The notes: a model not told the origin generated them from the letters alone. A stretch of 64,000 nt of DNA from Microthyrium microscopicum (GCA_010405405.1 MU004241.1:1337942-1401941); one strand, 5' to 3'. Shown: positions 38,844 through 61,425, counted from the first letter of the stretch. Numbers and translations are program-made.

Positions 38844-38873
38844 GTTGATTGGATTTGTAAAGTGGGGCAGCTT

Positions 38874-38883
38874 GTCACGTGAC
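38874..38883. promoter_or_regulatory. Palindromic E-box GTCACGTGAC, 143 bp upstream of the MFS start codon
   Basis: Perfect 10-bp palindrome with the CACGTG bHLH core, in promoter position; function inferred. Confidence 0.45.
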
Positions 38884-39026
38884 CCTGGACTATGGATTCA
38901 CAGCCACTGAGGCGAAACACCTCAGCTCAGGTGCTACCTCCAACATTTCTCTTCGTTGTGCATATTCAGCTCCTGTCCGATGCATTTCGTTTGCAAGAGG
39001 TCTATATCTGCGATATCTGAAACACT

Positions 39027-40451
39027 ATGAGGCAACCAGAACAGCCCATCGAAAATGATCTCGAGTGCAACGAAGTTGCCATTTCGGAACCTCCACAACC
39101 ACCAGATGGAGGGTTCGGCTGGGTAATGGTTGCGGCTTGCTCTACCATCAATTGTTTCACTTGGGGCGTAACATCGGTGAGAGACCTTCCTTCGACACCG
39201 TTTTAATCGTATGAGATTCGGCTAACCTCGAGGTATTCAGTCATATGGAATCTACTTGTCCGAGTACCTGCTTTCCAACACTTTCGACCGCGCAAGCCCT
39301 ATGGATTACGGTTTTGTTGGTGGTTTCAACTTTGCATTTGCCATGGTTATCGCTCCGTTAACGACCTATCTCGTCCCAAGGCTCGGGAAGCATGCCGTCA
39401 TGCTGGCAGGCAGCGTCTTGCAATGTGTCGGTTACATCGGGGCGTCTTTCGCAGGAAAGATCGTGCATCTATACATCACTCAAGGCGCCCTTGTTGGTTG
39501 CGGTATAGGTCTGATGATTGTGCCATCGATGGCCATTTTATCTCAGTGGTTTTCGCGAAAACGAAGTGTCGCCAATGGTTTAAGCTCCGCAGGCTCAGGT
39601 ATAGGCGGTATCGTCTTTTCCTGGGGCACAAGATCGATGATCAAGTCAATGGGACTTGCCTGGGCACTTCGTGCCACTGGACTGATCACACTAGCAGCAA
39701 ATTGCATTGCGATACTGCTCATCAGGGATAGGAATGATCACATCAAGCCAACGCAGCTAGCTTTTGACCTTGTGCTTTTGCGTCAATACAAGGTCATTTT
39801 GCTTTTACTGTGGGCTTTTATCTCAATGTTTGGCTACATTGCATTGCTGTTCTCCCTTTCGGATTTCGCGCTTGCTATTGGACTCTCGCGCGAGGAAGCT
39901 ACTGACATTGTTGGATTCTTGAACCTGGGTACAGCAGTTGGAAGGCCCATAATTGGCATCATGAGCGATCATTTCTCACGAGTCAACACTGCAGCAGTAC
40001 TCACGTTTTCATGCGGCATCATTTGCTTCGCATTATGGATGCCTGCCAAAACATATGGTCTGACGGTTTTCTTTTCCTTGCTCTGCGGAGCAATTCTGGG
40101 TGTTTTTTGGATGGCATGTATTCATTTTGCCGCCTACAACTTGGGAGCTGACTCGTACAGACGATATCTCCATTATGCGTTGAAGTTGCTGGTCTTAAAA
40201 ACCTTCCCTCGCTTCTCTCGCTTTCTTGGGCTACCATAATTCTTCCTACAACTTGTAAGTATACAAAACATCTTTGGAGGCGCTCCTAAAACTAAGGACC
40301 GACAGTTGCCGAAGCGATCGCTCTTCAAATACGCCGCCCAGATGCGCATATGCCGTACCTGTATCCTCAAATATTTGCCGGCCTGTCTTACATGCTCGCA
40401 AGTGCCTTCATGTTCGAATTACGGCGTGTCTTGCGCAAAATGCCGATTTGA
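39027..40451 (+). CDS. MFS transporter of the monocarboxylate porter (MCT/Mch-like) family; exons 39027-39176, 39241-40113, 40161-40254, 40306-40451
   Basis: N-terminal PPDGGFGW motif, SQWFSRKRSVANG loop and multiple hydrophobic helices. Splicing gives an open frame ending ...YLYPQIFAGLSY...KMPI*. Intron 2 needs a GC donor (GCATGT at 40114). Confidence 0.88.
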
Positions 40452-40683
40452 GGGGCCGGCGATTGGCGATGCAATCTCTATCATTACTAAAAATTGAGTG
40501 CATCCACAGAATCGAGTTCTAAAGTCTATGAGTATTATGCCGAGCTTAGCAATCCCTATTTACCCGTTGCTGTGTGCATACCTATAAAGCTACATAACAT
40601 GAAAATCGAAGCCCGGCTCAAATATGCGTACGAAATTAGCTATTACTATGCCTCCGTGGGAAAAAAAGAGCGGATACAAATGA

Positions 40684-42038
40684 TCAATTCTTCCAATCCC
40701 ACCGACGACCCAACCATTTTACAAGATACACCAGTGCCAGAAGTACTGGCACTTCGATCAAAGGTCCAACCGTCGAAGCAAGCGCTTGATCGCTGTCAGC
40801 ACCATAGGTCGCCACCGCTACCGCAATCGCAAGCTCGAAGTTGTTACTAGCAGCAGTGAAGCTCTGGGTAGTAGACAACCGGTATCCGAACCCAAGGCGT
40901 TTTGTGACGAGCAGGGTAAAGAAGAATATGACAGAGAAGTAGACGATCAAAGGCGCCGCTACTCGAACCACGGATACGATTTGGTGAACCACCCGGTGGC
41001 CTTGCGAAGCGAATAGGACGAGGATTGTGTAGAGAAGGCCAATAAGCGACCATGGAGCAGCCCATTTGAGGAAAACTCTATCGTACCATTCCGGACTGAC
41101 GAGTTTGCGGAGTGTGAATCGCGTTATGATGGCAACACCTAGTGGTATTCCAAGGAACACTGCAACGCTTGTTGCCACAACCGAATAGGATACAGCGACA
41201 GTCGACTCGGAGTGGCTGATGACTTTGATGAAGAGGACAGCTAGGGGGGCGTAGAGAACCATCTGTAGGATAGAGTTGATGGCAACGAGAATGGCACAGT
41301 ATTCGTTGTCGCCTCCGGCCAACCCTGTCCATATCAAGACCTTGTGCGTGGTTAGTGTATAAGGTCATATTATAGATTAGGACAAAACTTACCATGGCAA
41401 TGCAGCGGGCCAACCCAACCAAGATCAGTCCTTCACGAAGTTCACCTTTATCTGGTAAGAAAGCCCAGGATAGCCCAAGCTGTTGTCGTCAGCAGAGAAA
41501 GTAGAGCAGAGAAAGTAATCTTACCATCAACAATGGAGCAACGATCCAATTCATGACAATGCTGAACCCGATCTGTATCCAGATCTCTCGTTTGGCAAAG
41601 ACATGATGAAGGCTTTCGTACTTGACTTTACAAAGGATAGGATACATCATCACAAGCAGGCCGATAGCTATCACGAAATTAGCAAGTGTTCCAAGACTGG
41701 GGGAGTGGAGACATACCGATTGGAACGGACACCCTCACAAATTTTCCTTTATCCAGCGCAGGACCGACGTCGGACACAAAGTTTCCCAGCAAAACGCCAA
41801 TCACCATAGCGAGCAGAATCCAAACGGCGAGAAATCGGTCGAGCCATCCTAAACCCTTGAACACGGAGACTTTATCTTCCACTTTTGATTCACCAGCTTT
41901 CTCAGGATCGAGCGATGTTGAATGCTGAGTATCGTTCTGTAGAAGGTCGGATCTCGTGGCATCCAGAACTGGTGTTGACGGCAAAGATGTGGATACCGCT
42001 GGTGGAGGTGGATTTGCGAAGTCATCTTTTGCAGACAT
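40684..42038 (-). CDS. ACR3: Acr3-family arsenite efflux transporter; exons 42038-41717, 41667-41525, 41479-41393, 41340-40684
   Basis: Family motifs LDRFLAVWI, IAIGLLVMMYPIL, GLARCIAMVLIW (conserved Cys), ASNNFELAIAVA and GPLIEVPVL. Three canonical GT-AG introns give a continuous frame. Confidence 0.96.
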
Positions 42039-42511
42039 GATTTTTGGTTGCAATTGAACTTTTTTTTAGGGGTTGCTTCTCTCAATAAAAGGGAGTTCTT
42101 GATGAAAAAGACTGGTGAGCGGTTGTAGAATATTACTCTAGCGAGTGGATGGTTCGCGTTTTTGTACTGCGATTTCCCCAAGAGAACAGTATCGACTTTG
42201 CCAAGCAGAGCTGGACCAATCAAATCGTTTCTGTGACCGTTTACATTCAGCCCGAGATTCAATTCTGTTCCTCTCCGAATCCTTGCTAATCTAGAGCATG
42301 AAGCCACTCTGTGGCAAGTCTAGCTTGATGGTTTCAAGCATAATTCAATTCTGCACTTACATAGCCGTGCTTGGAAAAATCTAGGAAAATCCAGACATTG
42401 GCAGCTGCTCATTTCGTAGCTACCGGCCACGAGTAGACTTAACCTCAAGGACAGCATCGAGTTCTCCAGCATGGCTCTGTGATATGAAGGGGATGAATTA
42501 TGAAGGGACCT

Positions 42512-43275
42512 TTAAGGCATATCCATGATCTGAAATACTTTGGTGTTCTTTACAGTGCATTTCCTAGGACCATCGCAACCAAGCTCAACTCGCGCCTCCT
42601 CTTCGTTCCCATACCACCGCATCCCTGCTATTATGCTTGCCGCTACTTCGCACGATGTTTCGTGAGGGTCAATTTCATTTCCTGGTTGGATTGAATTGTC
42701 CTGATCATCGACTGAGAGGTTTATGTTTACGCTGGGAGACGTATCTTCCAACCTAACGTTCGCTTCGATCATTAACACCTCGATATCCTGCGAATCGTTC
42801 AGTTTCGAGACAGGTTCTCGATGCGGCGACGAAACCAGCGCGGTTGAAGGCGAGTTGACAGCAGAATCAAAAGTAGCATGACTGTCACTTTGCCGTGGGT
42901 CCGGGAGTGATGCAGACCCAGGGCTTTGAATCTCACGGCTTTGTACCGTAGAATCCATACACTGTTCGATATAATCATCAATTTCCTGCCTTGAAATGCC
43001 TTTCGCCGCCATGAGGCTTCGCAGTCTCTCATTTTCCCGCGCCACCCTGCAAGCAGCCTGTTGCAGTTCCAAACTGGCCTGAACTCCTCTCTGCTCATAT
43101 TCATGTATCCTTGTGCGCATATCCTCGATAAGCTCTTTCTGGCGCGCTCGCGAGCGACGTTGGTTTTCGCGGACTCGTATAGTTAGGGGAACACTGCCCT
43201 TCTAATAGTGACGTCGTTAGATAGTCATACATACAGAGAACATGGGATGGAACATAGACTCGCCTGTCTTGGCAT
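42512..43275 (-). CDS. bZIP transcription factor (~233 aa) with a C-terminal three-cysteine domain; exons 43275-43264, 43201-42512
   Basis: Basic region RVRENQRRSRARQKE followed by a heptad/coiled-coil segment (..VARENERLRSLM). C-terminus TSCEVAASII..LGCDGPRKCTVKN. The short first exon MPRQ joins in frame through a GCGAGT...CTAAC...TAG intron; exon 1 is less certain. Confidence 0.82.
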
Positions 43276-43539
43276 TGCGATGTATTCGGCAAACAGGAAA
43301 TGCGTTATTGCGCGATTTCATTCGGCGTAGGCAATTGTGTTATGTAAGTCGAAAAATCGGAGTCTACAGTAGCCTAAAGATTTCTGTCGCTTGGCGAGCT
43401 GACATAGAGTAGCCAATCAGATCTATGAAGTGACTAACCTTTTCCCGACCCGCATCATTTCGATGTGGATATCAAGCCTGGAGCAATCCTCCTCAAAAAC
43501 GAGGAATTATCAACTTGCTTTCGGTGCTCAGATCTTAAC

Positions 43540-44111
43540 ATGGCGGATTCAACAAAATCCAAAGCAGCGTGGTATGCCGCGTACCCAGTGGCGCGTACCC
43601 AAAACCCGGCGGCCATTGACAGAGCACAAGTTCTTCAACTTATCAAAGAATCGACAGGCGGTCCCCAAAGCTACGTGCTCGTTGATTTGAGACGAACTGA
43701 CCACGAGGCATCAGTCTCCTTCTCTCTCATTGCACCTTATGGAGCTAACGTTAAACCTAGGGGGGAACAATTCGAGGGTCCATAAATCTCCCAGCTCAAA
43801 GCCTATTCCCTTCTATCCCAACTTTATACGCCATATTCAAGGCTGCTGGTGTTGAAAAGGTGATCTGGTACTGCGGTATGATGTCAGGCTTGCCTATGCA
43901 TGCTGGGTACAACTAACAATAGCCAGGATCTTCAAAAGGCCGCGGAACCCGAGGCGCGGCATGGTTTGCGGATCATATTGAGAACGAGAAAGACGACCGT
44001 ATGCAAAGTTTGGTGTTGACTGAAGGGGTTAGAGGATGGGCTACCACTGGAGAAGAATACACGGCATTTATGGATGAATATGAGAAAAATGTTTGGGAGA
44101 AGAGCGAGTGA
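43540..44111 (+). CDS. ACR2: Cdc25/rhodanese-fold arsenate reductase (Acr2-like), paralogue a; exons 43540-43707, 43761-43875, 43927-44111
   Basis: LVDLRRTDHE|GGTIRGSINLPAQSL, active-site C(X)5R loop YCGSSKGRG and LTEGVRGW. Intron 1 donor is GC at 43708 or an in-frame GT at 43714. Confidence 0.88.
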
Positions 44112-44578
44112 AGAAGGCCACGTACCATATACAGAGGCAGTAGCTAAGTACCATAAGTTACATTGGAATCGAGAGACTGTTTCTTTACTTTTTACGACTG
44201 TAAGAAAATAAGAGGGTTTTTAAGTACGGACTCGCCCTACAATATCCCTTTGCACGCTGAAATCATTTCGCTCTCCCTCACCCTAGAACTCTCTTCTGCG
44301 CGTTGAACCTCATAACTGCTAAATTGACTTCCTCCTTGGCCTCTTGTATGGTCCCTGCAATTGCGTTCAGAAGATAAGGAGGTTGGCCGCCTCCTAACCG
44401 CGTCTCTACCGCTGGCCTTAAACTCAGATCAAGATTGATCAAGACCTGAAGGAACACCATTAAGAGGTGTTGCATGGTCCGATGACTTCGCCGATTCAAC
44501 CAAACCTTCACTACCAGTAAGCAATACTTGGAAGCTCTAGAACGATAACGTCGATGCAGAATTAAGCGACATGACATT

Positions 44579-44585
44579 TATATAA
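44579..44585 (+). promoter_or_regulatory. TATA-like element, likely the original arsH core promoter now displaced by the insertion
   Basis: TATATAA lies 32 bp left of the TIR; removing the insertion places it ~105 bp upstream of ATG 53968. Confidence 0.4.
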
Positions 44586-44616
44586 GCCAATCAAAACCAA
44601 GGAGTGACTACCTATC

Positions 44617-47600
44617 ATCCAGACATCCCCGCTAGGGGATGCCCGAAGAGAAGCTTTCGGACCCCCCCTTTTCGGGCCCCCCGTCCTGCAGGGGACCCAA
44701 CGCCTATTTTAAGCGCTCAATAGGAGTAATAGCGCCGCTACTAAATTTGTTAGTAAGCGCCATTTTGAGCCTAAGAAGAACGTATTTAATAGTAGAACTA
44801 GTAGAATTAGAGAGTAAGATCTTAACTAATTCTTAGCTAGTAAAGATTAATTTAAAGCTAAGATTTTAGTATTAAAGTTAATACTACTATATAAATAGAA
44901 ATAAAGAAAAAAAGTAATAGTAAAATTAAAGAAAAGAATAGATTTTAAAGTATTTATAATTCTTTACTATTTTTCTAGATTATTATAAAAAGAGTATAAT
45001 ATAATATTATATTCTTTTTTATTATATTTTAAATAATACTAATTAATCTAAGTTAGCTTATAATAGTCTATACTTACTTATTTTTACTTTTTAGCGTCTA
45101 GGCTCTATATAACTATAAACTCTAGTAAAATTAAAGTATTATTATTTATAATTTATAAATTATTAATAAAGATTAGCTTTATAGTATACTAAGTAGAAGT
45201 ACTAAAAACTTTATTATTATTAGTACTATTAAGATAGATTATTATAGATTATTAATAAACTAAAAGTAGTTAATAAAGTCTATTAAATTAATACTAATTC
45301 TATTATTTTAAAAAATAGTAAATATATATATATATAAGAAAATAAGTTAGTATACTAATAATAATAGCTATAGCTATAACTAGTAATATTAATATACTAT
45401 TTAGCTTTATAATAGTAACTATTCTTATTACTATAATAAGTAACTATAGCTATAACTTCTAGAGTATTTTTAAAAATATTAAAGTTAATAGTATATTTAG
45501 AAATATACTTATAAGTTATTAGGAACTAGAATACCTTTAGTTTAAAATAACTACTAATTATAAGGAATTCTTATAGGTTTAGTATTATAGTATTTAGATA
45601 CTAAGATCTAATTCTATAGATAACATCTTTTTATCTCGTTTAGAGTTAGTATATTTAAGAATATTCTAAGCTTCTACTTTTTTATATCTATAGCTATATC
45701 TCTAGATCTCTTCTCTTTATACTTAGATCCTATAATACTAGCTACTTTCTACTTACTTAATTATATTTATTAGCTTCTTATATAATCTAAGTACCTCTAC
45801 ACTAAATTTATACTCTATATATAAATTTACGTATTATTAATAAATATATAGAAGCGTTTATTAATTCTTATCTTAATTATAGTTATACTATAGATCTAAC
45901 TAATTAGTATTTAGTAATACTACCCTTAATTAGAATTAGCGTTACTAAAGGTACTAGTAAATTTATAAATACTAATTAGAGTAATATAAATTTAGTATTA
46001 TTTACTAGAATAAAAAACTACTTAGAGGTCTAAGCTTTGCTTTATAGTATTCTTCTTAGATTTATAGAGGCGTTTATACTATTTTTTTTTTATTAATTAT
46101 TAACACTTCTACTTTATTTCTTATTAAATCTATATTTATTAATTTATTAAATTAATTCTAATTTATTAAGAAATACTATATTATTTTAGCTACGTATTAC
46201 TATAAGTAAGGTATTATATATTCCTAGTCTTAAACTAGTATTAAGTAACTCTTATATTATTTATAAGTATAGCGACGTTAGTATTTAAAGCTACTTAGTT
46301 TTACTTTACTATAGTAGAGATAGTTACTTTACTAAGAAGCTAGTTATTCTAATAATTAGAACTAATTAATAATCTATTATAGCGTTAATTTTATAGTAAG
46401 AGAGTATCTTAGTAGTTAAATCTATTAAAAAGTTACTTTTATTACTTAAAGTAGCTTTAAATAATAAAAATAAGGAATTCCTTTATTAAAATACTTAAGT
46501 TAGTATTAATATCTAATAACCTTATAAGATTATTATTAGACTATTAACTATAGTACCTATTATACTAGTAAGCGTAATAAAAAAACTAGAACTAAAAAGT
46601 AAAAAAGTAATAACTTTTAGTACTATTATTAGTAGTTTACTAAATAAAAACGTATTAAAAGTAAGACTATCTATTAATATTTATTATTAGCTAGAATTAC
46701 TAGTATATAAAAAAGAACCTTATAATATTCTTATATTATTTCTATCTTACTTATCTTTAGAACCTATAAACCTTAATAGTAAAGTTACTTTATTTATAAG
46801 TTTAAAGCTTTTATTTATATAGGTATTATATAAAGTAAAACTAGAGGTAAGAAAATAGATACTAATAGTTTTCTAAGAGAATCTTAATAATTTTACTACT
46901 TTTTAGAAATTTTACGCTTTAATATTTAATAGTAAGTATCTAGATTAATATATTAAGTTTATAGAAGAAGATTAATTCTTTAAGTAACTATATATAGTAT
47001 TAGTAATTAATTAAACTATAATATTATATTACTAATTAGCTTAAAGACTTTAAGATTAGCTAGCTAGAAAACTTATAAATACTAATATAAAAGTAGGTTA
47101 TTTAGGTAAGTTAGTAGAAATACTATAAAAAGAAGTAGCTAATAATAGATCTTAAAGTATTTACTAACTAAGTCTAACGTAATTATAAAATAGTACTAAC
47201 TATAACTTATTTAAATAAATAAGTTACTTTTACTAAACTAGTAAAGAAACATAATACTAATTTATAATATTATAAGTTAGTTATTACTTTTTACTACTAA
47301 ATCTAAGAGCTAAAGAATAGACTTTAGACTAATTTAAATTAACTTTATATTAATTTAAAGAATTTAAAAAACAATATTTTCTTAGATTATTTTATACTAT
47401 AAGTAGTATATCTAATAATTTTATACTTATAGCTCTAAGCTTAAGAAATATATTATATTTTATTATTATTAGTAGTTAATAATAGCTTCCTAGTAATACT
47501 TATAAAGTTTAAAAAACTTAGTAATTTTAAATATAAACCTATATATTATAAATAATAGAAGAAGAAAATATTAAATATACTTTTTAATAAGAATATATAT

Positions 47601-50600
47601 CTTTATATTTTTACTAAAAAAAGAAAATTAAGTTTATTTAAATTTATTATACTAGCTTTACTTATAGTATTATAGTTATATATAAAGATTATAAGTTAAA
47701 AAATTCTTATTATACTATAGAAGAAATATAGATAGACTTAGATAGATATTATTACTCTAAGAACATTTTTAAAAATACTAAAGTATAATTAAAGTTCTTA
47801 AATACTAGAATAAAAGATATAAAAGGTCTTTAAGCTTTTATTAGCTACTTCTTAATAAATTTAATAAATATAAAACTATCTAAGCGTAAGAAGATTATTA
47901 AATTATAAGGTCTTATTAATTATAAATTTATAAATTTACTAGTAGACTAATATTTTAGTAGTTTTACTATATTTTATATATAATTTTATCTAGTTATATA
48001 CTAAATTAATTATAAGTCTATAGCTATAAATAATAACTCTTATAGCTATAGTAATAATTCGTCTACTAATAAAAAAGCTTAAAATAATAAAAAAAGTAAT
48101 ATTAACTATCTTATAGACGTCTTTAACGCTTTAAAAATAAATAAATATTATGTTTATTATAAATAAAAGGGTTACTACTATTTTAATAAAACTATACTAT
48201 ATAAAAATTAGAAATTCTTATTTAATAATAAGATTAAAGTCTTAGTTATATCTTTAGTAATAATATTTATAAAAGTTAAAAAAGAATAATAATTCTCTAT
48301 AAAAAATACTACTAAGAATAATAAATATTAGTCTTTAAACTAAATACTTTTTTACTAAGCTATAAGAAGAAGCTAAATAAGACTAAAGTATATAATAAAA
48401 AAAAGAAATATACCTTTAATACTAAAACTAAATATATAAAAGAGATATTTTATTAATATAATAAAAACTTCTACTAAAAGACTAAAAAAGCTAAAGAGAT
48501 ATTCTATTAAGTAAAGGAAAACTATAAGAATATTAAAGAAAAAGTATAAGAGAAGACTAAGAAGATTATAAACTACTTTTATTAGTATATTTAATACCTT
48601 AAATATAAGGATACTATTTATAAAGGATATATCTTACTAATATACTTATAAACTATTTATATCTTTCTAGCTTTTATTATACTAGTAGTATAGCCTTAGG
48701 ATATTAAAAAGAAAGATTCTATTATTAGATTATAATAAACTACTATTAGCTTAATATTTATACTATAGCGTTTAATTTACTTTAATACTAGTATTTTAAT
48801 TAATATTAGTAGTAGTATAATAAGAATTATTAATTCCTATTATCTTTAGTAATATAGTATTTCTACTTTTTAACTTATATATTTATACTTAGTAATACTT
48901 ACTAATAATAAGTTAATATTTATAATTAAAAAAGCTACTATTCTTAATTTATATATTAGCTATTATATTAAGTAAATTAGCTATTTTATTATAAAAGTAG
49001 TGTCTTATAATTTAATTCTAAAAGTACTTTAATTAGATTAGTATAAAGTTAATCTATATAAAGAATTAAGAATATTAATTTTCTATAGTATAAGATATAT
49101 TATAAATTATATTATTTTATAACGCTTAATTACTATAAATCTAAAAGATTAATTTATAAATCTAGAATTATCTAAAGATATAAATATTACTTTTATATCT
49201 ATAGTAGTATTTAAAAAACTTATAAAGCGTAAAGATACTATATTTAATATATTTTAGCTTAAAAGATTTTAATAATAAAAAGAAAAAAAAGCCTCTTAAT
49301 AATACGAATAATAATAATAAGTTTACTATAAATCTTATAATATACGCTATATTAAAAAAGAATTATCTTAAATAGTAGGATAAGTAAGACTACTTTTACG
49401 TATTAAAAGAAGAGATTTTAAAACTTATTTTAAAGTACTTTTACTAATATTTTAAAGTCTTTAATCTAAAACGTTTAAATATCTTAGCTTTATACTATAA
49501 TAAATATAACTACGCTATTAATTTTATTTCTAATATTAAAATTCTAAAATACTAACTTATATTAATATTATTAAAGTAAGTACTAGTTATTAAATAATAT
49601 ATTAAAAGTTTACTTTAGTAAGATTTTACTATAGGTTCTAAATCTTAATATACTATACTTATATTCTATATAAGTAAACTAGAAAAAGGTATCTATATCT
49701 ATATTAATTATTATAAATTAAATAATATTATTATTAAAAATAGTAATATCTTACTACTTATTAGTAAAACGCTTATATACTTTATAAAAGCTAAATACTA
49801 CTCTAAGTTTAACGTTATTATTACTTTTAAATATATTTATATTAAATTTAATAATAAATATAAAATAGTATTCTTAATACGCTATAGCTTATTTAAATTT
49901 AAAATACTACTTTTTAGCTTTATAAAGAAACTAAGAATATTTTAAGTATATATTAATTATATACTAATATAGTTTTTAAATAATTTTATATATATTTACT
50001 TAGATAATATTCTAGTATTTAGTAAAATACTAAAAGAATATAACGCTTATATATACTTAATACTAAACGTTTTAAAAGCTATAGGCTTATTTCTTAATAT
50101 TAAGAAGTTAAAGTTTACTATTTAAAAGGTAAAATATTTTAGTCTAATTATTACTATAGAAGGTATTAAGATAGGCTTCTTAAAGGTTAATACTATAGTT
50201 AATTAAGAATAACTAAGTTATTTTAAAAATATATAAATATTTCTTAAATTTACTAACCTCTACTAATAGTTTATTTTTAATTACTTTACTATAATAGTAC
50301 TATTAATAAATCTTACTTAAAAGAATACTCTAGCTATATTCCTTTAGAACTCTAATAGGCTTAAGGAATAAGTTTTTAAAAAGCTAAAAGTAGACTTTAC
50401 TAATATACTAATTCTATAATACTTTAATTATATTAAAGAAACTTAGATAGAGATAAATATATTAAATTAAGCTTATACTATAGTATTATTATAAAAAGAT
50501 ATAAATAGTAATTTAAGATTAGTTACCTTCTTCTCTAAGAAGATATTACTAGTAGATTATAATTATAATATTTATAATAAAGAACTACTTATTATTATTT

Positions 50601-53600
50601 ATATATTTAAGAAGTAGAAACTTAAATTATTTAGTACTAAAGATATTATAAAGATATTTTTAAATTCTTAAAACATTTAAATTTTAATAAAAATCAAAAA
50701 TCTTATATATTATTAAATATACTAAGCTAAATTCCTATTATAATTCTACTTTTTAATTAAATACTACCCTAGTAAAGATAATACTAAAGTTAATACTTTA
50801 ACTTAAAGATTATAGAATATACTTTAAAGTAATAAAAACTTATAAGTTAAATAATAATATTAACTACTTTTATTCTTATATTAATTTAGTACTAAATAAG
50901 TTATTAAGTTAGCTATAATTCTTATTAATCTAATTACTTTATCTTTTATATAAATAACTATACTTACGTTTAATAAGCTAAATATTACTATAGTAGGGAA
51001 GTCTAATTTAGAACTTATTATAGAAAGCTTTTAGAATAGAGCTTTAGCTAATTTAAATAATTTACTACTAGTTAATACTAAATCCTTAGATTTTAATCTA
51101 GAATAGTTTATATAAAAAGTAATAAAAATAAGTAAGAAAAATAAGTTACTAATTACGATTTAACTAGTAAAGGTATAGAAAAACTACTTTTTATCTTTTA
51201 AAGTACTAAATTAAGATTAAATTAAATTAATAAATTATAAGACTCTACTAAATAGTACTATTCTTTATTAATAAAAGTTATTTATATTAATAATATATTT
51301 ATAAAATAAAGTAATAAAATAAGTATATTAATATAAAATTATAGGCTATAGAGGAACTATAATAATATATTACTACTTTTAATAAAATTATTAGTAGCTA
51401 AGAATATTAAAATACGTTAAAAAGTACATTAAAAGCTACTATTATATCTTTATAAGATTAATATACTAAAAGAAGTAAGGCTTTCTTTACTTATTTTCTT
51501 TATAAACTAAGTATAATCTAATATCTTAATAAATTTTACTATTTTATTATTACGTTATACTTATTAAAGTATAGTTTATTAGTATATTATAGTTATTATT
51601 AATTATTTAATATAATTATAGTAATTTATTACTCTTCTAAGTCTTTTAATAGAAATAATAGTTATAGCTTTTATTAATTAAGTATAAAAGCTATATAGAT
51701 AGTCTAACTCTATTCTTTTAGATTAAGAAACTTAATTTATATTTACTTTTTAGAATTACTTATATAAACGTATAGGCGCTATACTAAAATTAAGTATAAT
51801 ATAGTACCTAGAATCTAATAGTATTACTAAAATATTTATTACTATATAAAAATAATATTTTAGATCCTTTATTAATTAAGATTAGAATAACTAAGTTATA
51901 TTATTACTATTTACTAAGTTTATAGTAAATTCTATAATAGATACTATTATTACTTTTATATCTTTTAAAGTATAAAATAGTTTTCTACTAAAATTAAAAC
52001 TTAAATCTACTTACTATTTACTATTTAAAGCGTTTTACGCTTTTATTATAGTATATAAAGAAGTTATTACTATTAATTAAATATAAAATAGTTAAGAAAA
52101 GCTTTATAAGTTTTTAAAGAAGTAATTAGTATAAGTTTAAACTTAATAAAAACTCTATACTAATAAGTATTAATATTTAGTATTAAATCTTTATCTTAAA
52201 AATTAAGTATAACTTAATATTTAAAATTATAATATAACTTATTTTTTTAAAATACTTAATAATAAAAGCGCTAGTCTTTTTAAAGTATTACGTAAAATTA
52301 ATAAAATAACCTATAAATTAGATTTTTCTAAATTAATAAAGATATACTTAGTATTTTATACCTAGCTACTATATTTAATTAATAATAATATATACCTATT
52401 ATAAGAATTAAACTTTCTCTTAATAATTATTAATAAAAAAGAAAGTAAAGAAAAATAGCTTATTAATACTATTATTAATAGTAAATAGAATAATAAAAAT
52501 AAAAATAAAGTACTTAAATATAAGATTAAATAGATAAGATTTTATAATAAAACTTAATAGCTCTAAAAAGATATTATTAATATACTTAATACTATATTAG
52601 AATTCTATAAGCTTTATTCTTAAAAGCTTAGTCTATACTTTTCTTAGTTCTTACTAATAAATAAAGTTAAAGAAGAAGATTATAATACTAATAGACTACT
52701 TATAGATTAGAATTATATAATATAAAAATTACTAATAGTATTATACTTTTAGTTTAGTTTTTAATTTATATTACTAAAAGGATTATAGAATACTATAAAC
52801 TAGCTTAAATAGATATTTTCTTCTTTATTAAATAAATTTAGATAGTACTAAAGTAAGTAAATAGTATATTATTATATTCTTTAGTAATAATATATATATA
52901 GAAGTTTTATATATATACAGACTAGCTTAGCCTAGCCTAGACTAGCTTAAACTAAACTAGAATAAATTAGATTAGAATATAGCTTATAAGGTCTATTTTA
53001 GAAGAAGAGAGTTATATAAGGAATCCTTATAGGTTTAGTATTCTAGTATTTAGATACTAAGATTTAATCCTATAAATAAAATCTCTTTATCTTATTTAGA
53101 GTTAGTATATCTAAGAATATCCTAAGTTCCTACTTTTTTATATTTATAGCTATATCTCTAGATCTCTTCTCTTTATACTTAGATTCTATAATACTAGCTA
53201 CTTTCTACTTATTTAATTATACCTATTAGCTCCTTATACTAATAGAATACATCTATATAGAATAAAGCGTTATTAGTTAAGCTAACTAATAATAACTTAT
53301 TATAAATATAGATAGTATAGTAGAGTCTTTACAGCTCTAGATAATAAAAAAGAAAGATTATAAAAGTCTAAGTAACTTTCTAGTAATTATTCTTATTTCT
53401 ATTTTTATATATCTACTTAAACTATAATAATTATAGTATTTATCTACTTAGAATAACTTATTTCTAATATAAGTAGCTTTTAAGTAAATTTTTCCTTAAG
53501 CTATAAAATATTATATTAAATTTTCTTATTTTTAAAATAACTTTAAAATCTTTAGATTTATAGCTTATAGCTATTCTATACGCTTCTTTATAACTAAAAA

Positions 53601-53897
53601 CTAGACGTAAATAAGTAGTTTAATAAAATACTTATAGTACGCTTTCTTTATTACTAAGTTAGTAATCTTACTAAAATTAGATATAGTATAACTATATAAT
53701 TATTATTAAATTCCTACCTAAAATAAATTATTTTCCTACTCTTTTTTTTTTTTTTCCTACTCCTCTTACTAGAATTAGTAGCTTTCCTTACTATTTTAGT
53801 TTAATAATATTACTAGTAAACGCCACTAAAATAAAGCTGGCGAGGTGGCCGGTTGGCGAGATAAACGGTGGGCATCCCCTAGCGGGGATGTCTGGAT
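44617..53897. mobile_element. Non-autonomous DNA element (family D, ~1.6 kb of own sequence) with perfect 28-bp terminal inverted repeats and nested Gypsy A copy 2
   Basis: atccagacatccccgctaggggatgccc (44617-44644) is the exact reverse complement of gggcatcccctagcggggatgtctggat (53870-53897). Interior is RIPed and matches 29470-29737. Confidence 0.85.
45559..53238 (+). mobile_element. Ty3/Gypsy family A copy 2, full length (7680 bp), RIP-degraded; 224-bp LTRs at 45559-45782 and 53015-53238
   Basis: Direct LTRs; TSD ctaat (45554-45558 / 53239-53243); purine tract agaagaagagag before the 3' LTR. De-RIPed ICxDYRKLN (~49697), YLDDILV (~49998), ETDASDW (~50450), chromodomain-like segment ~52450-52620. 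Confidence 0.92.
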
Positions 53898-53967
53898 CAA
53901 GGCATGGGTATCCGTTACATCCCATTCGTTATATGTCGAACTTGTCGTCGCACACAGTTCACAGGCA

Positions 53968-55058
53968 ATGTTCACGATTATCTTTGCTCTCCGTAAATCC
54001 TTCTTGAAACCTTTCACCAGAACCGTTTTCGAGCCCTTCTCTACAATGGCGATAAACAGCTCAGCAAATGGAATAGCAACCGGCATCAAAACCTCTCCAC
54101 AATCCAATGGTGACATCAACAACACGGCCGCTGCGCGCGCACAAGTCCTCATTGAAGGAGACATATCATACACTGGCCGTGATTTGTCCATATCTCCTGC
54201 AGAAGACGATGCCCAAGTGCGACAGGACTATCGACCCTTTCTCTTGGCGGAAGAGATTGCGAAGGGTGACTGGGTAGCTGAGCTCGAGCTAAATACGGCG
54301 CTACAGATAGTGGATAGGGAGATTATAAGGAAAAGCCAAGAGAGATTGAAGGTTCTGGTTCTCTATGGGAGCCTAAGGGAACGGTTCGTCTTGAACATGG
54401 AGAGTCAGTGTCGCAAATTCGCTAACGGAGGGACAGTTCATTTTCGAGACTATTGGCTTTCGAAGCCTCGAGAATACTGTTTAGACTTGGATGCGACGTT
54501 CGAGTTTACAACCCAGCTGGTCTTCCAGTGAAAGATGACGTTCAATTCTCCCACCCCAAGGTCCAAGAATTGCGGGAGTTAAGTAGATGGAGCGATGGTC
54601 ACGTCTGGGTTAGTCCTGAACAGCATGGAACCCTTACCGCGGTTTTCAAAAACCAAATAGATTGGATCCCACTTTCGACAGGCTCTGTTCGCCCAACTCA
54701 AGGGAGAACCCTCGCGATCGCTCAATGCAATGGCGGTTCTCAATCTTTCAACTCAGTTAATTCTTTGCGGATCCTTGGAAGGTGGATGCGAATGTTCACA
54801 ATTCCGAATCAAAGCTCAATACCAAAGGCTTATACCCAGTTTACAGAAAAAGACGGGCCAGAAGGGGGAAGCAGATTGATGCCGAGTGGGAATAGGGAGC
54901 GCTTGGTCGATTGTATGGAGGAGTTTGTTAAGTATACTATTGTTATGAGACCGCACTTTGATTTGTTTGGCGACAGATTTAGTGAGAGGATGCAGAGAAA
55001 AGCTAAAGAGGAGAAGGCGAAGGCCCAGGAGAAGCCCCATGAGAATACATCGGCGTAG
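53968..55058 (+). CDS. arsH: ArsH NADPH-dependent FMN reductase (organoarsenical oxidase family); exons 53968-54383, 54437-55058; alternative start 54046
   Basis: Splicing restores [19 protein letters not shown]. Further motifs [68 protein letters not shown]. Confidence 0.96.
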
Positions 55059-55288
55059 GGTATCAGAGGGTGGGGCAGGCAGAGAAAAATATAGACTTGA
55101 AATCAACATCCAGATGCAACTTTAGAACGGTCGCTTGGATACCCTTTTCAAATGGTCAAGTCTAGTACGGAAAAGCAATGCTACCTTCTCTTGAAGCGAG
55201 CCAATAGTTTGCATGTAGTGACATTCAGTTTGGAGATATATTAGGCTAGTGCACGTACCGAAAGCATCTATTTCGGATGTCGTAAACG

Positions 55289-55893
55289 ATGCACTTTTTC
55301 CAGCTCCAGCCTTCTTCCCGTTTGCTTCTCAATCATTTGCTCAAGTCTGTTTGCCGCTGCCAAATTGACCGAAGGACTGCCTCGACAATGACATCAATCC
55401 CCTTAGATTCCCCATGGGATCCTAATTACCCAATCGCCCGAAACCAGAATCCAGCATCACTCACTCGGCACGACATCCTCTCTATACTTTCCTCTGGCCA
55501 GAAGCCAGGTGAAGATTTCATACTCATTGACCTTCGACGAGAAGATCATATTGTAGGTCATCTCTCGTTCCAGTTCAATCGCACCATTTTAATTCAGACC
55601 AGGGCGGCGCGATCCAAGGATCCATTAACATACCAGCGCAAACTCTATACCCGACTATTCCAGCATTGTACAGTCTTTTCTCGAATGCAGGGGTTAAGTC
55701 TGTGGTATGGTTCTGTGGGTCATCTCAACATCGCGGATTTCGGGCTGCTGCGTGGTTCGACGACTATATTCAATCACGAGGCAATGAGGAGATGAGGAGC
55801 TTTCGACTTCACGAGGGAATCAAGGGCTGGGCGACTGGAGGCGCAGAGTTCACTCAACGGATGGATGGGTATGTTAAGGAAGCTTGGGATTAA
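55289..55893 (+). CDS. ACR2: Cdc25/rhodanese-fold arsenate reductase (Acr2-like), paralogue b; exons 55289 (or 55388)-55552, 55603-55893
   Basis: LIDLRREDHI|GGAIQGSINIPAQTL, C(X)5R loop FCGSSQHRG and LHEGIKGW. GT-AG intron 55553-55602 is at the same position as intron 1 of paralogue a. Confidence 0.9.
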
Positions 55894-56020
55894 CTTTTCT
55901 GCTGCAAGAGCAAAACACCGCTGTCTTCTGGTTTTTGCAGAGAAAGAGCGGCAGCATTACTCGGGCAAGAAAATTAGACTACTCTCGGGCTTTCCACCAT
56001 TCTTCAATTACAGTACATTG

Positions 56021-57419
56021 TTAATAACAGCTATATTCGGGTAATATCTAGTCGTAAGTCAGAAAATTAGCCACTGGACTCGATAAAGTAGTAATACACG
56101 TACCTCGTCCCTGCCCAAATTTCCCTCAGCGCCCTCACACGTCCTCGAATTTGTCCGATGTACAGACGTAGTCCGCTCAAACGGATATACCACCTGTAAC
56201 GGCATCTCGAATTCCATGGGTTTCGCGTGTATTCCACTCACGCTGATCTTCGCTAGAAAAGAATACGATCTCGCTAGTAGTACACTACAGAAACTAGGCA
56301 ATAATACCTGAGATGGGTTGATTTGGATCTTCAAAGAAGTACTCCAAGATTGCGGCTCATGCAAGGAGGGTGTCCACTCCAGGTTTCCATGGCGCTGTTC
56401 TTCCAGTCTTACAATGTCGTCATGAAGTTGTAGGAGATTTTCCGAAGACAGGTCGCTTTGGTTCGGCATGCAATGCATCGGCTTCGCAGAGTAGTATGTT
56501 TTAACCCGTATTCCAGATTTGATGCGGATAGCCATCTGCATCCGTCGATTTATGGGGAGTGTAGCACGAAGAGACAGCCGTAGAGTAGTTTCTGTTGAAG
56601 GCGTTGATGCTGAAGTGGGATATACAAGAGCATTTGGTTCGTCTAAGCTTGAGTTTAGAGTTCCGACGCGTGGTCCAAGATAGTATCGCCGTAGCATGGA
56701 TGTAACAGAGGCGATGAACTCGCTGGGGTAGTCAAGGGTATTTGTTGGAGGGGAAACCTCTGAATATGGAAGAATGTTGATTTCTTTGGCTGCAGTGACT
56801 TTCAGCCGCGCCTCTGTGTCGGTGGTGGTAGCGTAGTAGTTGAGCGAGGCAGATAGCAGGTATTGGATGCCCGCTCTTGGTCGGTCCGCGTCGTATGTGC
56901 GGTATCCGCTGGCTTGAAGGGAAGGGGGGAGAACCCGGCATACGACAGGAACTGAATGGTTATACTCCTTAGTAACTGGGGGAATAATGAAGTAGAATTT
57001 GAAGGTGTATATCCAGAGTTTTGATTGTTCAATTTGAATCGCGTTGACACTGAAATTTTGATGCATTTTAAGAAACTGCATCTAGCTTAGCGAAAATACC
57101 ACAGGAAAAGCAGGCTATCGCGTTTTTGACTAACTGTTTCTGAAGATTGATGCACAACTATGTCATAAACGGGTCTAGGGCGATCCACAACGAAGGTGGT
57201 CTGGAGACCTAATCGGATATTTAGAATGCCAATTCGCATCGGGTTTGTATATGTTCTACCTTGTAACGACATGTTGAGATTTCTGAAACTCAATTCCATA
57301 GAAGATCGTATTCGAACCTCGCCTTCAAGTGAGCTAAAGGGCCGGTATACATTGACGTTTCCGTCGCATTCCTCGCATTGAAAGAGGACAATTTCTACCA
57401 CGGGGGATTGTATTGTCAT
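56021..57419 (-). CDS. Arrestin-like (ART/Bul1-type) protein, ~412 aa; exons 57419-57260, 57208-57135, 57081-56104, 56047-56021
   Basis: Beta-rich pattern with LEGEVRI, FKFYFIIP, LPPSL..IQYLLSA and LLPSFCSVLLARSY. Three GT-AG introns keep frame; the last exon encodes ILPEYSCY* (LPxY-type motif). Family call is by motif resemblance only. Confidence 0.65.
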
Positions 57420-57999
57420 CTCGTGAAGGAATATATTGGGGATAAATGTGATTGCGATTGCGGAATGTAAGGTGTGTAGAAGTATGCAGATTGACGAAAT
57501 ATAAGAGGGGTTATATTTATTATCTCTTGAGCTCCCTTCCTCGTTATTGTGCTCTCGATAAGTCGGTTGTGCTGCGTGTGCGTGCAGGACCGACGGGCGT
57601 GGTCTATCCCTTGTATTTGACTTGTTCGCTGCAACCAATGAGACGGGTGCAGTGACTTACCGTATCATTGAATGCGCCTCACCCAGGTGGTTTCAGGCTT
57701 CAGCCTTCCAAGGTGACCACATGCGTCTTCAGTGACTGTCGGATGATTCGAATAATACCAAATCATCCCCTGTTATTGCAGCTCTCGCCATATACTGACA
57801 AATATGCGGGCATTGTGGAACAGGCGAGAACCTCTTCATTACTGTTCAGAAAACGTTGTTTGCCTTGTTCCTCGCTCTTTCATTAACTGACGCCAGCTCG
57901 ACTTTCCTTCCACTCCTAGTACTGCAAATTTTGGTTCCAGCAATTGCTTTGATTGGTTTTCCTATATTTGCTCCATGGAAGGAAGGGTTGGTGGAAACA

Positions 58000-58726
58000 A
58001 TGTCGACGATGCCACACGAGCCACAAAGTCCGTCTGCGACACAGTCTGCTAGCTCACCGCAACAAACAGCACATCTTTCTACAAGTAACAAATGCAAGCG
58101 TCCAGGACCAAGGTTGCAGCGCGACACTTCGACGCGTCGACGACAGACCAACTATCTATCAATTCAGCCGTTGCTGCAGCAACAACAGGTATTGCGGAAA
58201 GAACATGACGCTCCAGAAAAAAAAAGTTAGTAGGTGTTCGATCCAGTTAGCTTTATATGATCAATAATCAATCAATCCAGCAGCCCAGCATGGAGCCGCT
58301 TTGGAGGAGCTGACATCCAAATCCAATTATCAGTTCATCGCCGACGGCAGTCACTCTCAGCTTGGTCTCTCTTTTCCAGACGAAATTGTACTCAGCGTCC
58401 ACTCCAAACGTGAGAACCATTCAGCGGCGGAGCAGGCTCGACGGGATCGTCTTAAATCCGCTTTCCTGGAGATGTCCGCAGTGCTAGCCGGCAAAGGCCA
58501 AGAATCTAGGATCGATGTAAACAGATCCAGAGCAGTACATACGAAAGATGGCAACCCAGGGATCATCAATAAGGATAAAGATGCCGCAACGTTCCAAAAA
58601 GTGGTTCCAAAGGCAAAGCTTGTTGAGATGGCAATAGACAGAATCAACACTCAACAGAAGGAGTTGGAGGAGTTGAGGCGGAGCCTAGATAACTGCCAGC
58701 GTCGTATGGAAAAATGTCAAGAGTGA
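58000..58726 (+). CDS. bHLH transcription factor with a Pho4/NUC-1-like DNA-binding domain, ~223 aa; exons 58000-58225, 58281-58726
   Basis: KRENHSAAEQARRDRL (H-E-R E-box residues; compare Pho4 KRESHKHAEQARRNRL), long loop, helix 2 PKAKLVEMAIDRI and a coiled tail. The GTTAGT...CAG intron restores frame. Confidence 0.78.
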
Positions 58727-58944
58727 AAGAAATTGAAATACAAAAATGACAGGAAGCGCATCGAGATAATCATCTAATTTTTTCATGGCGGAAGCCCTTT
58801 AACGTTGGAGCTTCGTGAGCCACGGAAGAGGACGGCAAATGGCAATTCTCGTGGGTTACTCATCATGAGAACGGAGATAAGTGTTTAGCCTACAGATTGA
58901 CCTATTTGGTTCCTCGATCAAAGAAGGCGTTTTCTAAACGGCGT

Positions 58945-61425
58945 CAGTACATTTACTAAAAAGCGCCTAGATATTTACTAGAAAGCGCTAGAGCCAATAA
59001 TCCTATACAGACTATGCCTAAATAGGAAATTAATTAAATATTATTAGTGTAGAGCCTATAGAATTACGTGTTCTAGCTCTAATATTCTTAAAGTATAGAA
59101 AGATTAACTCTATTACTACAGACAAACGCTATAGGACTAGCCTAGAATATTAACTTTCTTAACTCTATTTTTACGCCTAAAATACGTTCTAAAAGAGATC
59201 TTATCCTACTATTACTTATTACTATTTATATACTCTCTTGTAGCTAATTTCTACTATATCTTAACCTTATTTTTAGTAGTATTACCTACGTTCTAGCGGT
59301 CTAAAGGAGGGTCGTTCTAGAAGCTATTAAGATTGCTATTAGGGTTATTTTTACTTCTTTAAAGTTACTATTATCGTTATAGTAGTAGTAGTTAAAGTAC
59401 TAATAGTACTATCTTATATAGTTATCTTAATAGTAGTAGTAGTAGAAACTAGCGTAGGAATTAGTACTAATACTACTAAAGCTATAGATCTAGCTTCTAT
59501 ATAGTAGAGCTAGCGTTCTAGCTCTATAATCTAAGTATAAAGTATAGTATTATTAATATTTTTAGGAAGCACTAAAGAAGCTATAGCTAAAGATAAGGCT
59601 ATAGTAATTACTAGACACTATCTTTTAGATATAGGACTACTTATAGAAGTAGTTAGATTAACTATTAAAGCCTCTATAGTAGTAACTATAACTTATTACT
59701 ACTTAGTAGTATATTATATATACTAATCCTTATCTATAGTTAAAAGATTAATGAATTCTACGTCTAGTACTATAGCTATAGCTCTAGCTTCTTTAACATT
59801 ATAATCTATAAGTACTAGTAGCTTAAATTAAGATAGGATTTAACTTAAAGGAGCCTATAGACGTTAATTAGGTTAAAAATAAGACTAAGAGGGCTATCTA
59901 CTAGTAGATACTTAAAGTAAAGGTAGAATCTATAGTAGTAGTAGTAGTAGCTATAGAGTAGGACTAATAAAAAGTACTAGAGGTTAAATATATAGCACTC
60001 TAGATTAAATTTAATTATAATACTAATATAGATTAATATCTTCTTACTAAAGCTACTATAAAGTATTCTAGAATAGATATTTCTTAATTATATAACTATA
60101 AAGTAATCTATATATTAAATTAAACGTTTTTAAGTATTCTATAGTTAGTTAAGTACTAGTAACCTTTTTTTACTATTTTTAATACTACTTTGTAATTAGC
60201 TTTAACGCGTAGGAACTAATATAGTATAAAGACAATTAGTAGAGAATAGGAAAATATTAAGTCTTTAATAAGGAATCTTTCTTATTAGAATTAAGCTAAG
60301 TAATTCCTTTTAAGTACTTAACTTAATAGTAGATAGCTTTACCTAAGGAATCTACTATCTTTAATATATTACTAGTAGGAGTAATCTATATCTTTAATGT
60401 ATTATAGAGGCTTTCTAGTAATAATATTATTATAGTATTAAAATATTAGAATCTATAAATAAAAGTAGTATATAATTTCTTCTTAAATAGTATTTAGGTA
60501 TTAATAAGATATTTAATAAATCTTAAGTCCTTAATATCTATAAATTAGCTTTTTATAGTATTCTAAGTAATATCTAGAGCTTTCTTAGTAGGAATATTAA
60601 TAACCTATAGATTTATTAGTAAAATAACTATTAGAAGAGCTAAGAGTAGCTTACCTCTTACTAAAGTAAAAGTACTATATTTTAAGATCTTTAAGTAGTA
60701 TCTCTACTCTCTTAATTTAGTATAAAATTAGTAGTTTTTTATATCTCTCTAATCTTCTATTTAATATTCTTACTATAGTAGAATTAACATATAAGCTATA
60801 GAGTAGGAATAGTAGTCTTAAAAGTATTTTTAAGTACTTTATATTAGTTTATAAATATAATATTTAAAAGTTTAGTTTTAGGCTTCTTTATAAGCTAATT
60901 AAACGTTTCTAAAGCCTATTTATATTTCTTTTTATCTTTACTTATTATAAAACAGAAAGCTATAGAGAAGTATTTATATATAGTAATAAATACTATAATA
61001 TAAAACATTAGTATTTTATAGTAATTTATTTTCTATATAGTATTAAAGAGTAAGATATTAGAATAAGCGTAATAAAGAGTAATTATAGACTTTAAAGTAA
61101 TAAAAAAAGATTTTAGATATTCTTATTTAAGTTAAATTCTTAAGATAAACTTATTATATAATTTTAACTTATTTAATATATATTCTAGTAGTATACAACC
61201 TACTAATTATAATATTCTTTTAGCTTAATTTACGTTATAAACGTCTTTAATATTAATATTAATTCTAGAATACTATAGATAGATTTTATTAAGAATCTTT
61301 ACTAGCTAGTTATTAGCCTAATAGAGAACATTAATTTTAGCTTTAAAGTTATTTATATAGAGAGTATATTATTAATAAGTAGTAAAGACATATAATTTAA
61401 TTAGAAAGTATAAATATTTATAATT
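58945..61425. repeat. Unclassified RIP-degraded sequence, probably a transposon, at the right border of the cluster
   Basis: Abrupt rise in AT/TpA. Short direct repeat atttacta(a/g)aaagcgc twice at ~58950-58988 resembles a terminal structure; family not identified. Confidence 0.45.

Follow-up and report, generated by a model that had tools for sequence, protein, structure and literature searches.

An arsenic-resistance gene island of Microthyrium microscopicum carries an arrestin-fold gene and a Pho4-like bHLH gene that may control transporters

The stretch of Microthyrium microscopicum DNA analyzed here (GCA_010405405.1 MU004241.1:1337942-1401941; 64,000 nucleotides, hereafter the window) contains eight genes that almost certainly form an arsenic-resistance cluster of an ascomycete. 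The core of the cluster, made of the arsenite transporter ACR3, arsenate reductases, ArsH, and a basic leucine zipper (bZIP)-like regulator, is that of a known fungal arsenic cluster and is not new. What is new is a conserved accessory pair added to this known kind of cluster: a gene for an arrestin-fold protein and a gene for a small basic helix-loop-helix (bHLH) protein similar to yeast Pho4. We consider it likely that the pair is functionally part of the arsenic cluster, and as an overall explanation we lean toward an arsenic cluster equipped with an arrestin–bHLH pair that controls transporters. The genes and the transposon that separates them are as follows (positions counted from the first letter of the window; aa, amino acids; RIP, repeat-induced point mutation).

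56021..57419, minus strand: arrestin-fold adaptor, 410 aa, 4 exons (57419-57260, 57208-57135, 57075-56104, 56047-56021)
58000..58726, plus strand: small Pho4-like bHLH, 223 aa, 2 exons (58000-58225, 58281-58726)
40684..42038, minus strand: ACR3 arsenite efflux transporter, 402 aa, 4 exons (TIGR00832, Pfam SBF)
42512..43255, minus strand: bZIP-like regulator, about 236 aa, start uncertain (ESM Atlas look-alikes, orthologs beside ACR3)
43540..44111, plus strand: ACR2a, Acr2-type (rhodanese) arsenate reductase, 157 aa, 3 exons (C-X5-R motif)
54046..55058, plus strand: ArsH (NADPH-FMN oxidoreductase, organoarsenical oxidase family), 319 aa, 2 exons (TIGR02690, FMN_red)
55388..55893, plus strand: ACR2b, Acr2-type arsenate reductase, 151 aa, 2 exons (C-X5-R uninterrupted)
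39027..40451, plus strand: monocarboxylate transporter (MCT)-like major facilitator superfamily (MFS) transporter, 416 aa, 4 exons (39027-39176, 39241-40101, 40161-40254, 40306-40451)
44617-53897, no strand assigned: inserted, RIP-degraded DNA transposon with perfect 28-nt terminal inverted repeats (44617-44644 and 53870-53897)

An argument for the pair is that relatives of the arrestin gene, in one case together with a small bHLH gene, recur near ACR3 in other lineages. A single scan of metagenome contigs with an arrestin-fold profile yielded 15 loci, which were searched with the exon products of the window (tblastn, E<=0.001) and then with Pfam. Flanks of at least 3 kb to either side of the match were available for three independent sequences (L001/L002, L004, and L005-L007), and in two of these three both ACR3 and the bZIP-like gene were found within 8 kb of the arrestin relative. 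In L001/L002 (one sequence in two records; 36% identical), the bZIP-like gene, ACR2, ACR3, and the arrestin gene stand in a row, the ACR2 relative lying between the bZIP-like gene and ACR3, and the arrestin gene coming directly after ACR3. In L005-L007 (one sequence in three records; 28% identical), the order is arrestin, small bHLH, PiT, ACR3, and bZIP-like gene, with 5.8 kb between the arrestin gene and ACR3. The PiT gene, between the bHLH gene and ACR3 (14510-16237 in L006, also present in L005 and L007), encodes a phosphate transporter of the PHO4/PiT family (Pfam 3.9e-119). The window ACR3 is 78% identical to that of L005-7 and 69% identical to that of L001/2. Searches of the 15 loci with the window MFS, arsH, and bHLH products gave no match at the tblastn threshold, the L006 bHLH (Pfam 0.0023) being found by Pfam alone; it matches the window bHLH in BLASTP at 2e-5 and shares with it a long loop, a short zipper, and the C-terminal end. 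The remaining loci were too short for linkage to be judged; in five of these (L003, L008, L009, L011, and L012), the neighboring frames showed no Pfam family. The left side of the L001 cluster (2-502, 1240-2064) contains a fragment of a HET-domain gene (5.7e-24) and a frame that resembles, by eye, the end of a pogo-type transposase.

The linked relatives are not confined to one branch of the arrestin-fold family. In a FastTree phylogeny of 97 rows (members of at least 330 aa among P0008-P0154, plus four named members and the products of the loci; shorter rows were excluded), the window protein, a Varicellaria relative, and L002 fall into one starred clade, and L006 into another, next to the unlinked L004. 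Judged from these sequences, linkage to ACR3 and the bZIP-like gene thus appears in two clades of the family, and because L002 and L006 belong to different starred clades, it would be either old or gained twice. A first-pass annotation of the window had proposed that the MFS, arrestin-like, and bHLH genes form an uptake-control layer attached to the detoxification core. The attachment is supported for the arrestin and bHLH genes, as relatives of both recur near ACR3, but not for the MFS gene, which has no relative in the 15 loci.

The arrestin-fold protein belongs to a family that, from the scans made, appears to lack any Pfam model of its own. AlphaFold models of the window exon-3 product and of a full-length relative both display a two-lobed arrestin fold; the top Foldseek match, for the relative, is ARRD-6 (5.5e-13). 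A word-index search with the protein returned six relatives, and a profile search of 1.84 billion representatives returned 720 at E<=0.001, of which 130 reach E<=1e-30, these representatives being clusters at 50% identity. UniRef labels four relatives "Arrestin-like N-terminal domain-containing protein," and one distant family member carries PF00339 and PF04425. The tiny fourth exon of the window gene, whose splicing is confirmed by RNA-derived contigs (X1, see below), encodes a C-terminal LPxY motif located seven residues from the C-terminus. An [LP]PxY motif is also present in the tails of 38 of the 116 family members that could be judged (those with a conserved C-lobe end and a tail of at least 15 residues), mostly within five residues of the end. 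Moreover, PY-type motifs are 13 times denser in tails (38 in 5972 residues) than in bodies (18 in 36988). The combination of an arrestin fold and a PY motif is the signature of adaptors of Rsp5/Nedd4 ubiquitin ligases, which is the function predicted for this protein.

The second member of the pair diverges from the arrestin gene across a shared promoter of 580 bp. Its model is letter-for-letter identical to a deposited 223-aa M. microscopicum protein and reaches the Pfam HLH family at 1.6e-6 (28.3 bits, for a cut-off of 20.7). The sole match at E<=1 in a PDB sequence search was yeast Pho4 (1A0A), a weak one (E 0.0075 over 44 residues), and the basic region is nearly identical to that of Pho4 over 15 residues. 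The loop is long and the zipper short, and a word-index search found only three relatives. Around the pair, relatives that are about 95% identical differ from the window in two short stretches, 57488-57584 in the shared promoter and 55987-56063 in the spacer that separates ACR2b from the arrestin gene, where they have 29 and 74 other letters, respectively; the genes are retained in both cases.

RNA-derived contigs show that this part of the cluster is transcribed. The X1 contigs, 100% identical to the second of the two gene islands described below, skip exactly five predicted introns and are thus RNA-derived; the introns are those of arsH (54383/54437), ACR2b (55552/55603), and the arrestin gene (57260/57208, 57135/57075, and 56104/56047). 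X2, from a relative, skips three of the five, including those of arsH and ACR2b. Together, RNA-derived contigs cover arsH, ACR2b, the arrestin gene, and the bHLH region, under growth conditions that are not stated. X2, X8, and X10, which come from other organisms, carry the entire second island, mostly 95-99% alike. We also looked for k-mers and palindromes shared among 13 promoter stretches of the three lineages. CCAATCA occurs six times in the islands (38846, 41797, 42216, 43413, 44587, and 57950) against 1.5 expected, a count reached in 2 of 500 shuffles, and is found in the cluster spacers of L002 and L006 as well; it is probably the general fungal CCAAT box. CACGTG is the Pho4 site, and its copy in the window sits in a perfect 10-bp palindrome (38874-38883) at the edge of the island, 150 bp upstream of the MFS start.

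The assignment of the core genes is based on profile matches for two of them and on motifs, look-alikes, and position for the others. Exon 4 of ACR3 matches TIGR00832 (acr3) at 1.8e-70 over profile positions 120-326, and three of its exons match Pfam SBF; in the gene model, the first 60 or so residues of the protein form a cytosolic tail with many Asp and Glu. Exon 2 of arsH alone matches TIGR02690 at 3.8e-85, with 284.5 bits against a whole-protein cut-off of 292, and ArsH matches Pfam FMN_red at 5.7e-24. The two reductases are 61% identical over exon 2, and the C-X5-R motif, uninterrupted in ACR2b, is split by the second intron in ACR2a. At E 0.01, Pfam gave no family for the bZIP-like, reductase, and arrestin pieces, and at E 10 it gave only Rhodanese for ACR2b, at an E-value of 0.07 and hence below threshold. 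A PDB sequence search with ACR2b returned chance matches only, and the nearest ESM Atlas clusters carry Rhodanese (scores 0.92 and 0.87). The label "Acr2-type reductase" therefore refers to the C-X5-R motif, the rhodanese look-alikes, and the position of the genes. By homology, Acr3 would export arsenite, the two C-X5-R rhodanese reductases would convert arsenate to arsenite, and ArsH would handle trivalent organoarsenicals.

The regulator of the core required a more cautious name. It showed no Pfam family up to E 10 and only chance matches in the PDB sequence search; the ESM Atlas places it nearest to clusters labeled "BZIP domain-containing protein" (score 0.98), which have no Pfam family in common. 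Alignment with the orthologs of two other lineages revealed an invariant basic region and three invariant C-terminal cysteines. Identity with Yap8/Arr1, a bZIP of the Yap family, was considered and rejected, as neither a Pfam bZIP match at E 10 nor a PDB match was obtained, and the basic region departs from what we take to be the Yap pattern. The protein may work like Yap8 without being classed as one; by analogy, we infer that it plays the role that Yap8/Arr1 has in yeast. By analogy with Yap8 and ArsR, too, the three invariant cysteines are likely to be an As(III) sensor site. The start of the gene is uncertain because its first intron (43202-43234) would measure only 33 nt, which is unusually short. 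This intron is the sole route to an ATG, and the open frame starts in all three lineages at the same lysine, right before the basic region. A conserved upstream exon is likely, judging from this sequence pattern.

All eight models, assembled from window coordinates, open at an ATG and close at a stop codon with none in between, and their GT..AG introns measure 33-64 nt. They lie in two islands of normal GC content set in AT-rich, RIP-degraded surroundings: GC is about 0.47 in the islands (approximately 38844-44616 and 53898-58950) and 0.15-0.27 across the degraded DNA. The RIP indices agree, with TpA/ApT at 1.57-1.76 in the flanks and middle block versus 0.69-0.70 in the islands, and (CpA+TpG)/(ApC+GpT) at 0.05-0.07 versus 1.24-1.32. 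Only two stop-to-stop frames of at least 80 aa were found in 1-38800, both low-complexity and AT-rich, and a single frame of at least 90 aa lies outside the islands in 36000-64000 (49649-49945, in the middle block). The genes and coordinates called in the first-pass annotation are thus borne out, with no other substantial frame outside the islands. The stretch from ACR2a to the insertion contains a 99-aa frame (44278-44577, minus strand) that has an ATG but no Pfam family at E 0.05; it is unlikely to be a gene. Repeated retroelement copies, about 85% alike (82-90%) and in both orientations, make up the degraded DNA, among them the long terminal repeat (LTR) retroelement copies 11769-19475 and 45559-53304, and 19482-21561 and 61627-63706. 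A frame at 15081-15377 resembles a RIP-mutated reverse transcriptase.

The two islands are separated by a transposon, which is the insertion given in the same annotation, with identical coordinates. The terminal inverted repeats of the 44617-53897 element are G+C-rich, while its interior is degraded by RIP to 18% GC, and an LTR retroelement is nested within it (45559-53304), the inner part of which is an inverted copy of 11769-19475. The X8 and X10 contigs lack the window block 44609-53908. The letters that precede position 53909 in these contigs match window positions 44579-44608 (28 of 30), which identifies them as carrying the empty site, its edges lying 8 and 11 nt outside the inverted repeats. 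As related organisms lack the transposon, the cluster is one unit of 10.8 kb, close to the 11 kb predicted for the genes without the insertion, and the transposon split it later.

How the pair might act is suggested by work on yeast. According to a 2024 review, the transporter Pho84 is the main entry of arsenate and is driven by the bHLH factor Pho4; its level drops on exposure to arsenic, and it binds to Rsp5; under arsenite, Hxt transporters are removed by arrestins together with Rsp5; and how Pho84 is degraded in response to arsenicals is described as ambiguous (PMC11050377). In the explanation that we favor, the arrestin would recruit, through its PY motif, a Rsp5/HulA-type ubiquitin ligase to a plasma-membrane transporter and so cause endocytosis of the latter, and the bHLH would act on promoters of the phosphate regulon. 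Arrestin and bHLH would together lower arsenate entry through phosphate transporters, or swap the phosphate transporter in use, and the core would remove the arsenic that gets in. That the target of the pair is an uptake route, rather than Acr3 or something else, we infer only tentatively. The complete sequence of events, in which arsenic exposure leads the island-encoded arrestin and Pho4-like factor to withdraw the phosphate transporters that admit arsenate from the membrane and to rewire phosphate uptake, is rather unlikely in this full form.

Several observations weigh against a transporter-controlling pair. The pieces of the window arrestin reach no Pfam arrestin model, and of 24 long relatives scanned with Pfam (among the 150 listed), two touch Arrestin_N and one Bul1_C, all below cut-off. 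Because the family is large (720 at E<=0.001), most of its members are probably not linked to arsenic genes. The 9 kb of L004 (29% identical) contain no arsenic gene. The bHLH intron (58226-58280) is unskipped in the listed X1 contigs (58018-58900, depth 488) and in X2, where contigs can mask a minor spliced form; the unspliced frame stops after 76 aa, upstream of the bHLH domain. In the alignment, the L006 bHLH lacks the histidine of the basic region. CACGTG occurs once in the 64-kb window, in the MFS promoter, and 18 of 100 shuffles also reach one; the five copies in L006, two of which fall between ACR3 and the bZIP-like gene, do not exceed chance level, and L002 has one, outside the cluster, so that placement is not consistent. 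Apart from CCAATCA, no k-mer stood out in the 13 promoter stretches, and no palindrome was shared. No phosphate transporter gene is found in the window, and no MFS relative in the 15 loci. Finally, none of the arrestin, bHLH, and MFS genes figures in the published list of Starship arsenic-cluster genes, in the part available, although the list includes two unnamed orthologous groups (PMC12256816, Table S3_3). As for the unspliced bHLH intron, either regulated retention or an assembly effect could apply, and regulated splicing at this position could serve as the switch of the pair.

The simplest alternative is that only the core functions as a unit, the MFS, arrestin, and bHLH genes being ordinary neighbors that have survived in the gene island. 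The lack of MFS relatives, the unlinked arrestin paralog of L004, the size of the arrestin family, the failure to find a shared cis-element, and the published accessory list just mentioned all speak for it. However, two other lineages have arrestin relatives, from different clades, next to ACR3 and the bZIP-like gene, the pairing of arrestin and small bHLH recurs in L005-7, and with some ten thousand genes per genome, chance is a very unlikely cause of such recurrence. The arsenic region of the Botrytis element Ariane, as far as the available preprint text describes it, also contains an MFS gene. We judge this null explanation improbable.

A second alternative, which concerns origin and is compatible with the other explanations, is that the island is the cargo, or the relic of the cargo, of a giant Starship element. 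Arsenic clusters with variable accessory genes do recur as Starship cargo, as in Hephaestus and Ariane according to the available parts of the corresponding preprints, the island stands alone within 64 kb of degraded repeats, and the L001 cluster lies beside the transposase-like fragment and HET-domain gene described above. On the other hand, no intact gene that might be a captain (a DUF3435 tyrosine recombinase) was seen in the window, in which no search with a DUF3435 model was made and whose flanks are too RIP-degraded to be read; the repeats that were identified are LTR elements and one inverted-repeat transposon; and the presence of the same island in three organisms at about 95% identity fits vertical descent equally well. 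We judge a Starship origin improbable.

The main rival for the role of the pair retains the arrestin as an adaptor but has it act on the turnover or sorting of the cluster's own Acr3 or MFS instead of on uptake. It is the least probable of the three alternatives. The arrestin gene comes directly after ACR3 in L001/L002, the window Acr3 has the Asp/Glu-rich cytosolic tail described above, and arrestins act on Acr3 in yeast too, where Acr3 is degraded via Art3 and Art4 according to the review (PMC11050377). However, degradation of the exporter would lower resistance, with no evident benefit to the cluster; in L005-7 the arrestin gene adjoins the bHLH and phosphate transporter genes and lies several kilobases from ACR3; and the partner gene is Pho4-like.

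The MFS gene stands apart from the pair. Its product matches Pfam MFS_1 at 2e-25, and its PDB sequence relatives are MCT2 (4.7e-15) and 13 further MCT, OxlT, or SfMCT sequences, the best after MCT2 being MCT8, MCT1, and MCT10. Among NCBIfam families, it matches L-lactate MFS transporter/SfMCT (5.5e-27), the MCT subfamily (4.4e-20), and oxalate-formate transporters, all far below their cut-offs, so that the protein can be assigned as MCT-like (2.A.1.13) at the family level only; the nine NCBIfam families listed for it include no known arsenical carrier. Intron 2 of the gene model has a weak 5' site (GTTTTT). The one precedent for an MFS in such a cluster is that of the Botrytis Ariane arsenic region. 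That the MFS belongs to the cluster, for example as an exporter of organic arsenicals, is possible but doubtful.

If the proposed role of the pair is correct, it bears on how cells close the phosphate-transporter route to arsenate, a question without a settled answer even in yeast: an arrestin and a Pho4-like factor encoded in a cluster would give a direct genetic handle on this step; the island of one lineage (L005-L007) would even supply its own PiT-type phosphate transporter. The arrestin would also be the first trafficking adaptor found as a dedicated component of a resistance gene cluster in a eukaryote. More generally, the data suggest that membrane-traffic regulators, and not enzymes and pumps alone, can be part of eukaryotic resistance islands, and they provide a fold and a working hypothesis for a fungal family of 720 representative clusters without a Pfam model.

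Among known systems, the closest to the core is the yeast arsenic cluster, which consists of ARR1/YAP8, ARR2/ACR2, and ARR3/ACR3. The window resembles it in having a bZIP-like regulator, a putative C-X5-R rhodanese reductase, and an Acr3 pump side by side, and the regulator and reductase genes are divergent neighbors in the window and in L001/L002. It differs from the yeast cluster in its two reductases and in the presence of ArsH, the MFS, the arrestin-fold gene, and the bHLH. The arrestin-fold protein has the two-lobed fold and the PY-type C-terminal motif of the yeast arrestin-related trafficking adaptors (ARTs) and of Bul1/2, which work with Rsp5, but it belongs to a separate family, whose likeness to Arrestin_N or Bul1_C is at most subthreshold, and it is encoded in a resistance cluster instead of being a housekeeping protein. 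Compared with the Pho4/NUC-1 type, the bHLH has an HLH domain whose sole PDB sequence match is Pho4, and a basic region close to that of Pho4, but differs from these factors by its small size of only 223 aa, its long loop, and its short zipper.

Arsenic clusters carried by Starships of Penicillium and Aspergillus have a core of arsH, arsC, and arsB, to which accessory genes are added in varying sets, a bZIP frequently among them (PMC12256816, Table S3_3); the sole arrestin in the supplement as available is ROD1, listed under other cargo. Unlike these clusters, as far as they are described there, the window has no arsM, Pho80, TRX1, or P-type ATPase gene, and no captain was seen. In the Starship Ariane of Botrytis cinerea, ArsH, Acr3, a rhodanese Arr2-like protein, and an MFS stand in a row, followed by "ArsY" of unknown function (Ariane preprint, available text, in which the words "arrestin" and "bHLH" do not occur). 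Likened by description only, this region has ArsH, Acr3, a putative rhodanese reductase, and an MFS in common with the window, and either "ArsY" or the two unnamed orthologous groups of the Starship list may correspond to one of the window's accessory genes. A full-text literature search returned, in the portions of text it covers, no report of a fungal arsenic cluster that contains an arrestin or a bHLH. The view of the first-pass annotation that the combination is not a described module must therefore be narrowed: a core with variable accessories has been published, including the MFS of Ariane and a Pho80-like cyclin, whereas for the arrestin and the bHLH no published mention was found in these sources. 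That cyclin, a kinase partner controlling Pho4, lies in the arsenic region of Hephaestus from Paecilomyces variotii (Hephaestus preprint, available part). A regulator of the phosphate pathway is thus found inside an arsenic cluster in both cases, namely the cyclin of Hephaestus and the Pho4-like bHLH of the window, and the latter would, if its proposed role is correct, mean that arsenic clusters have captured the PHO pathway a second time, independently.

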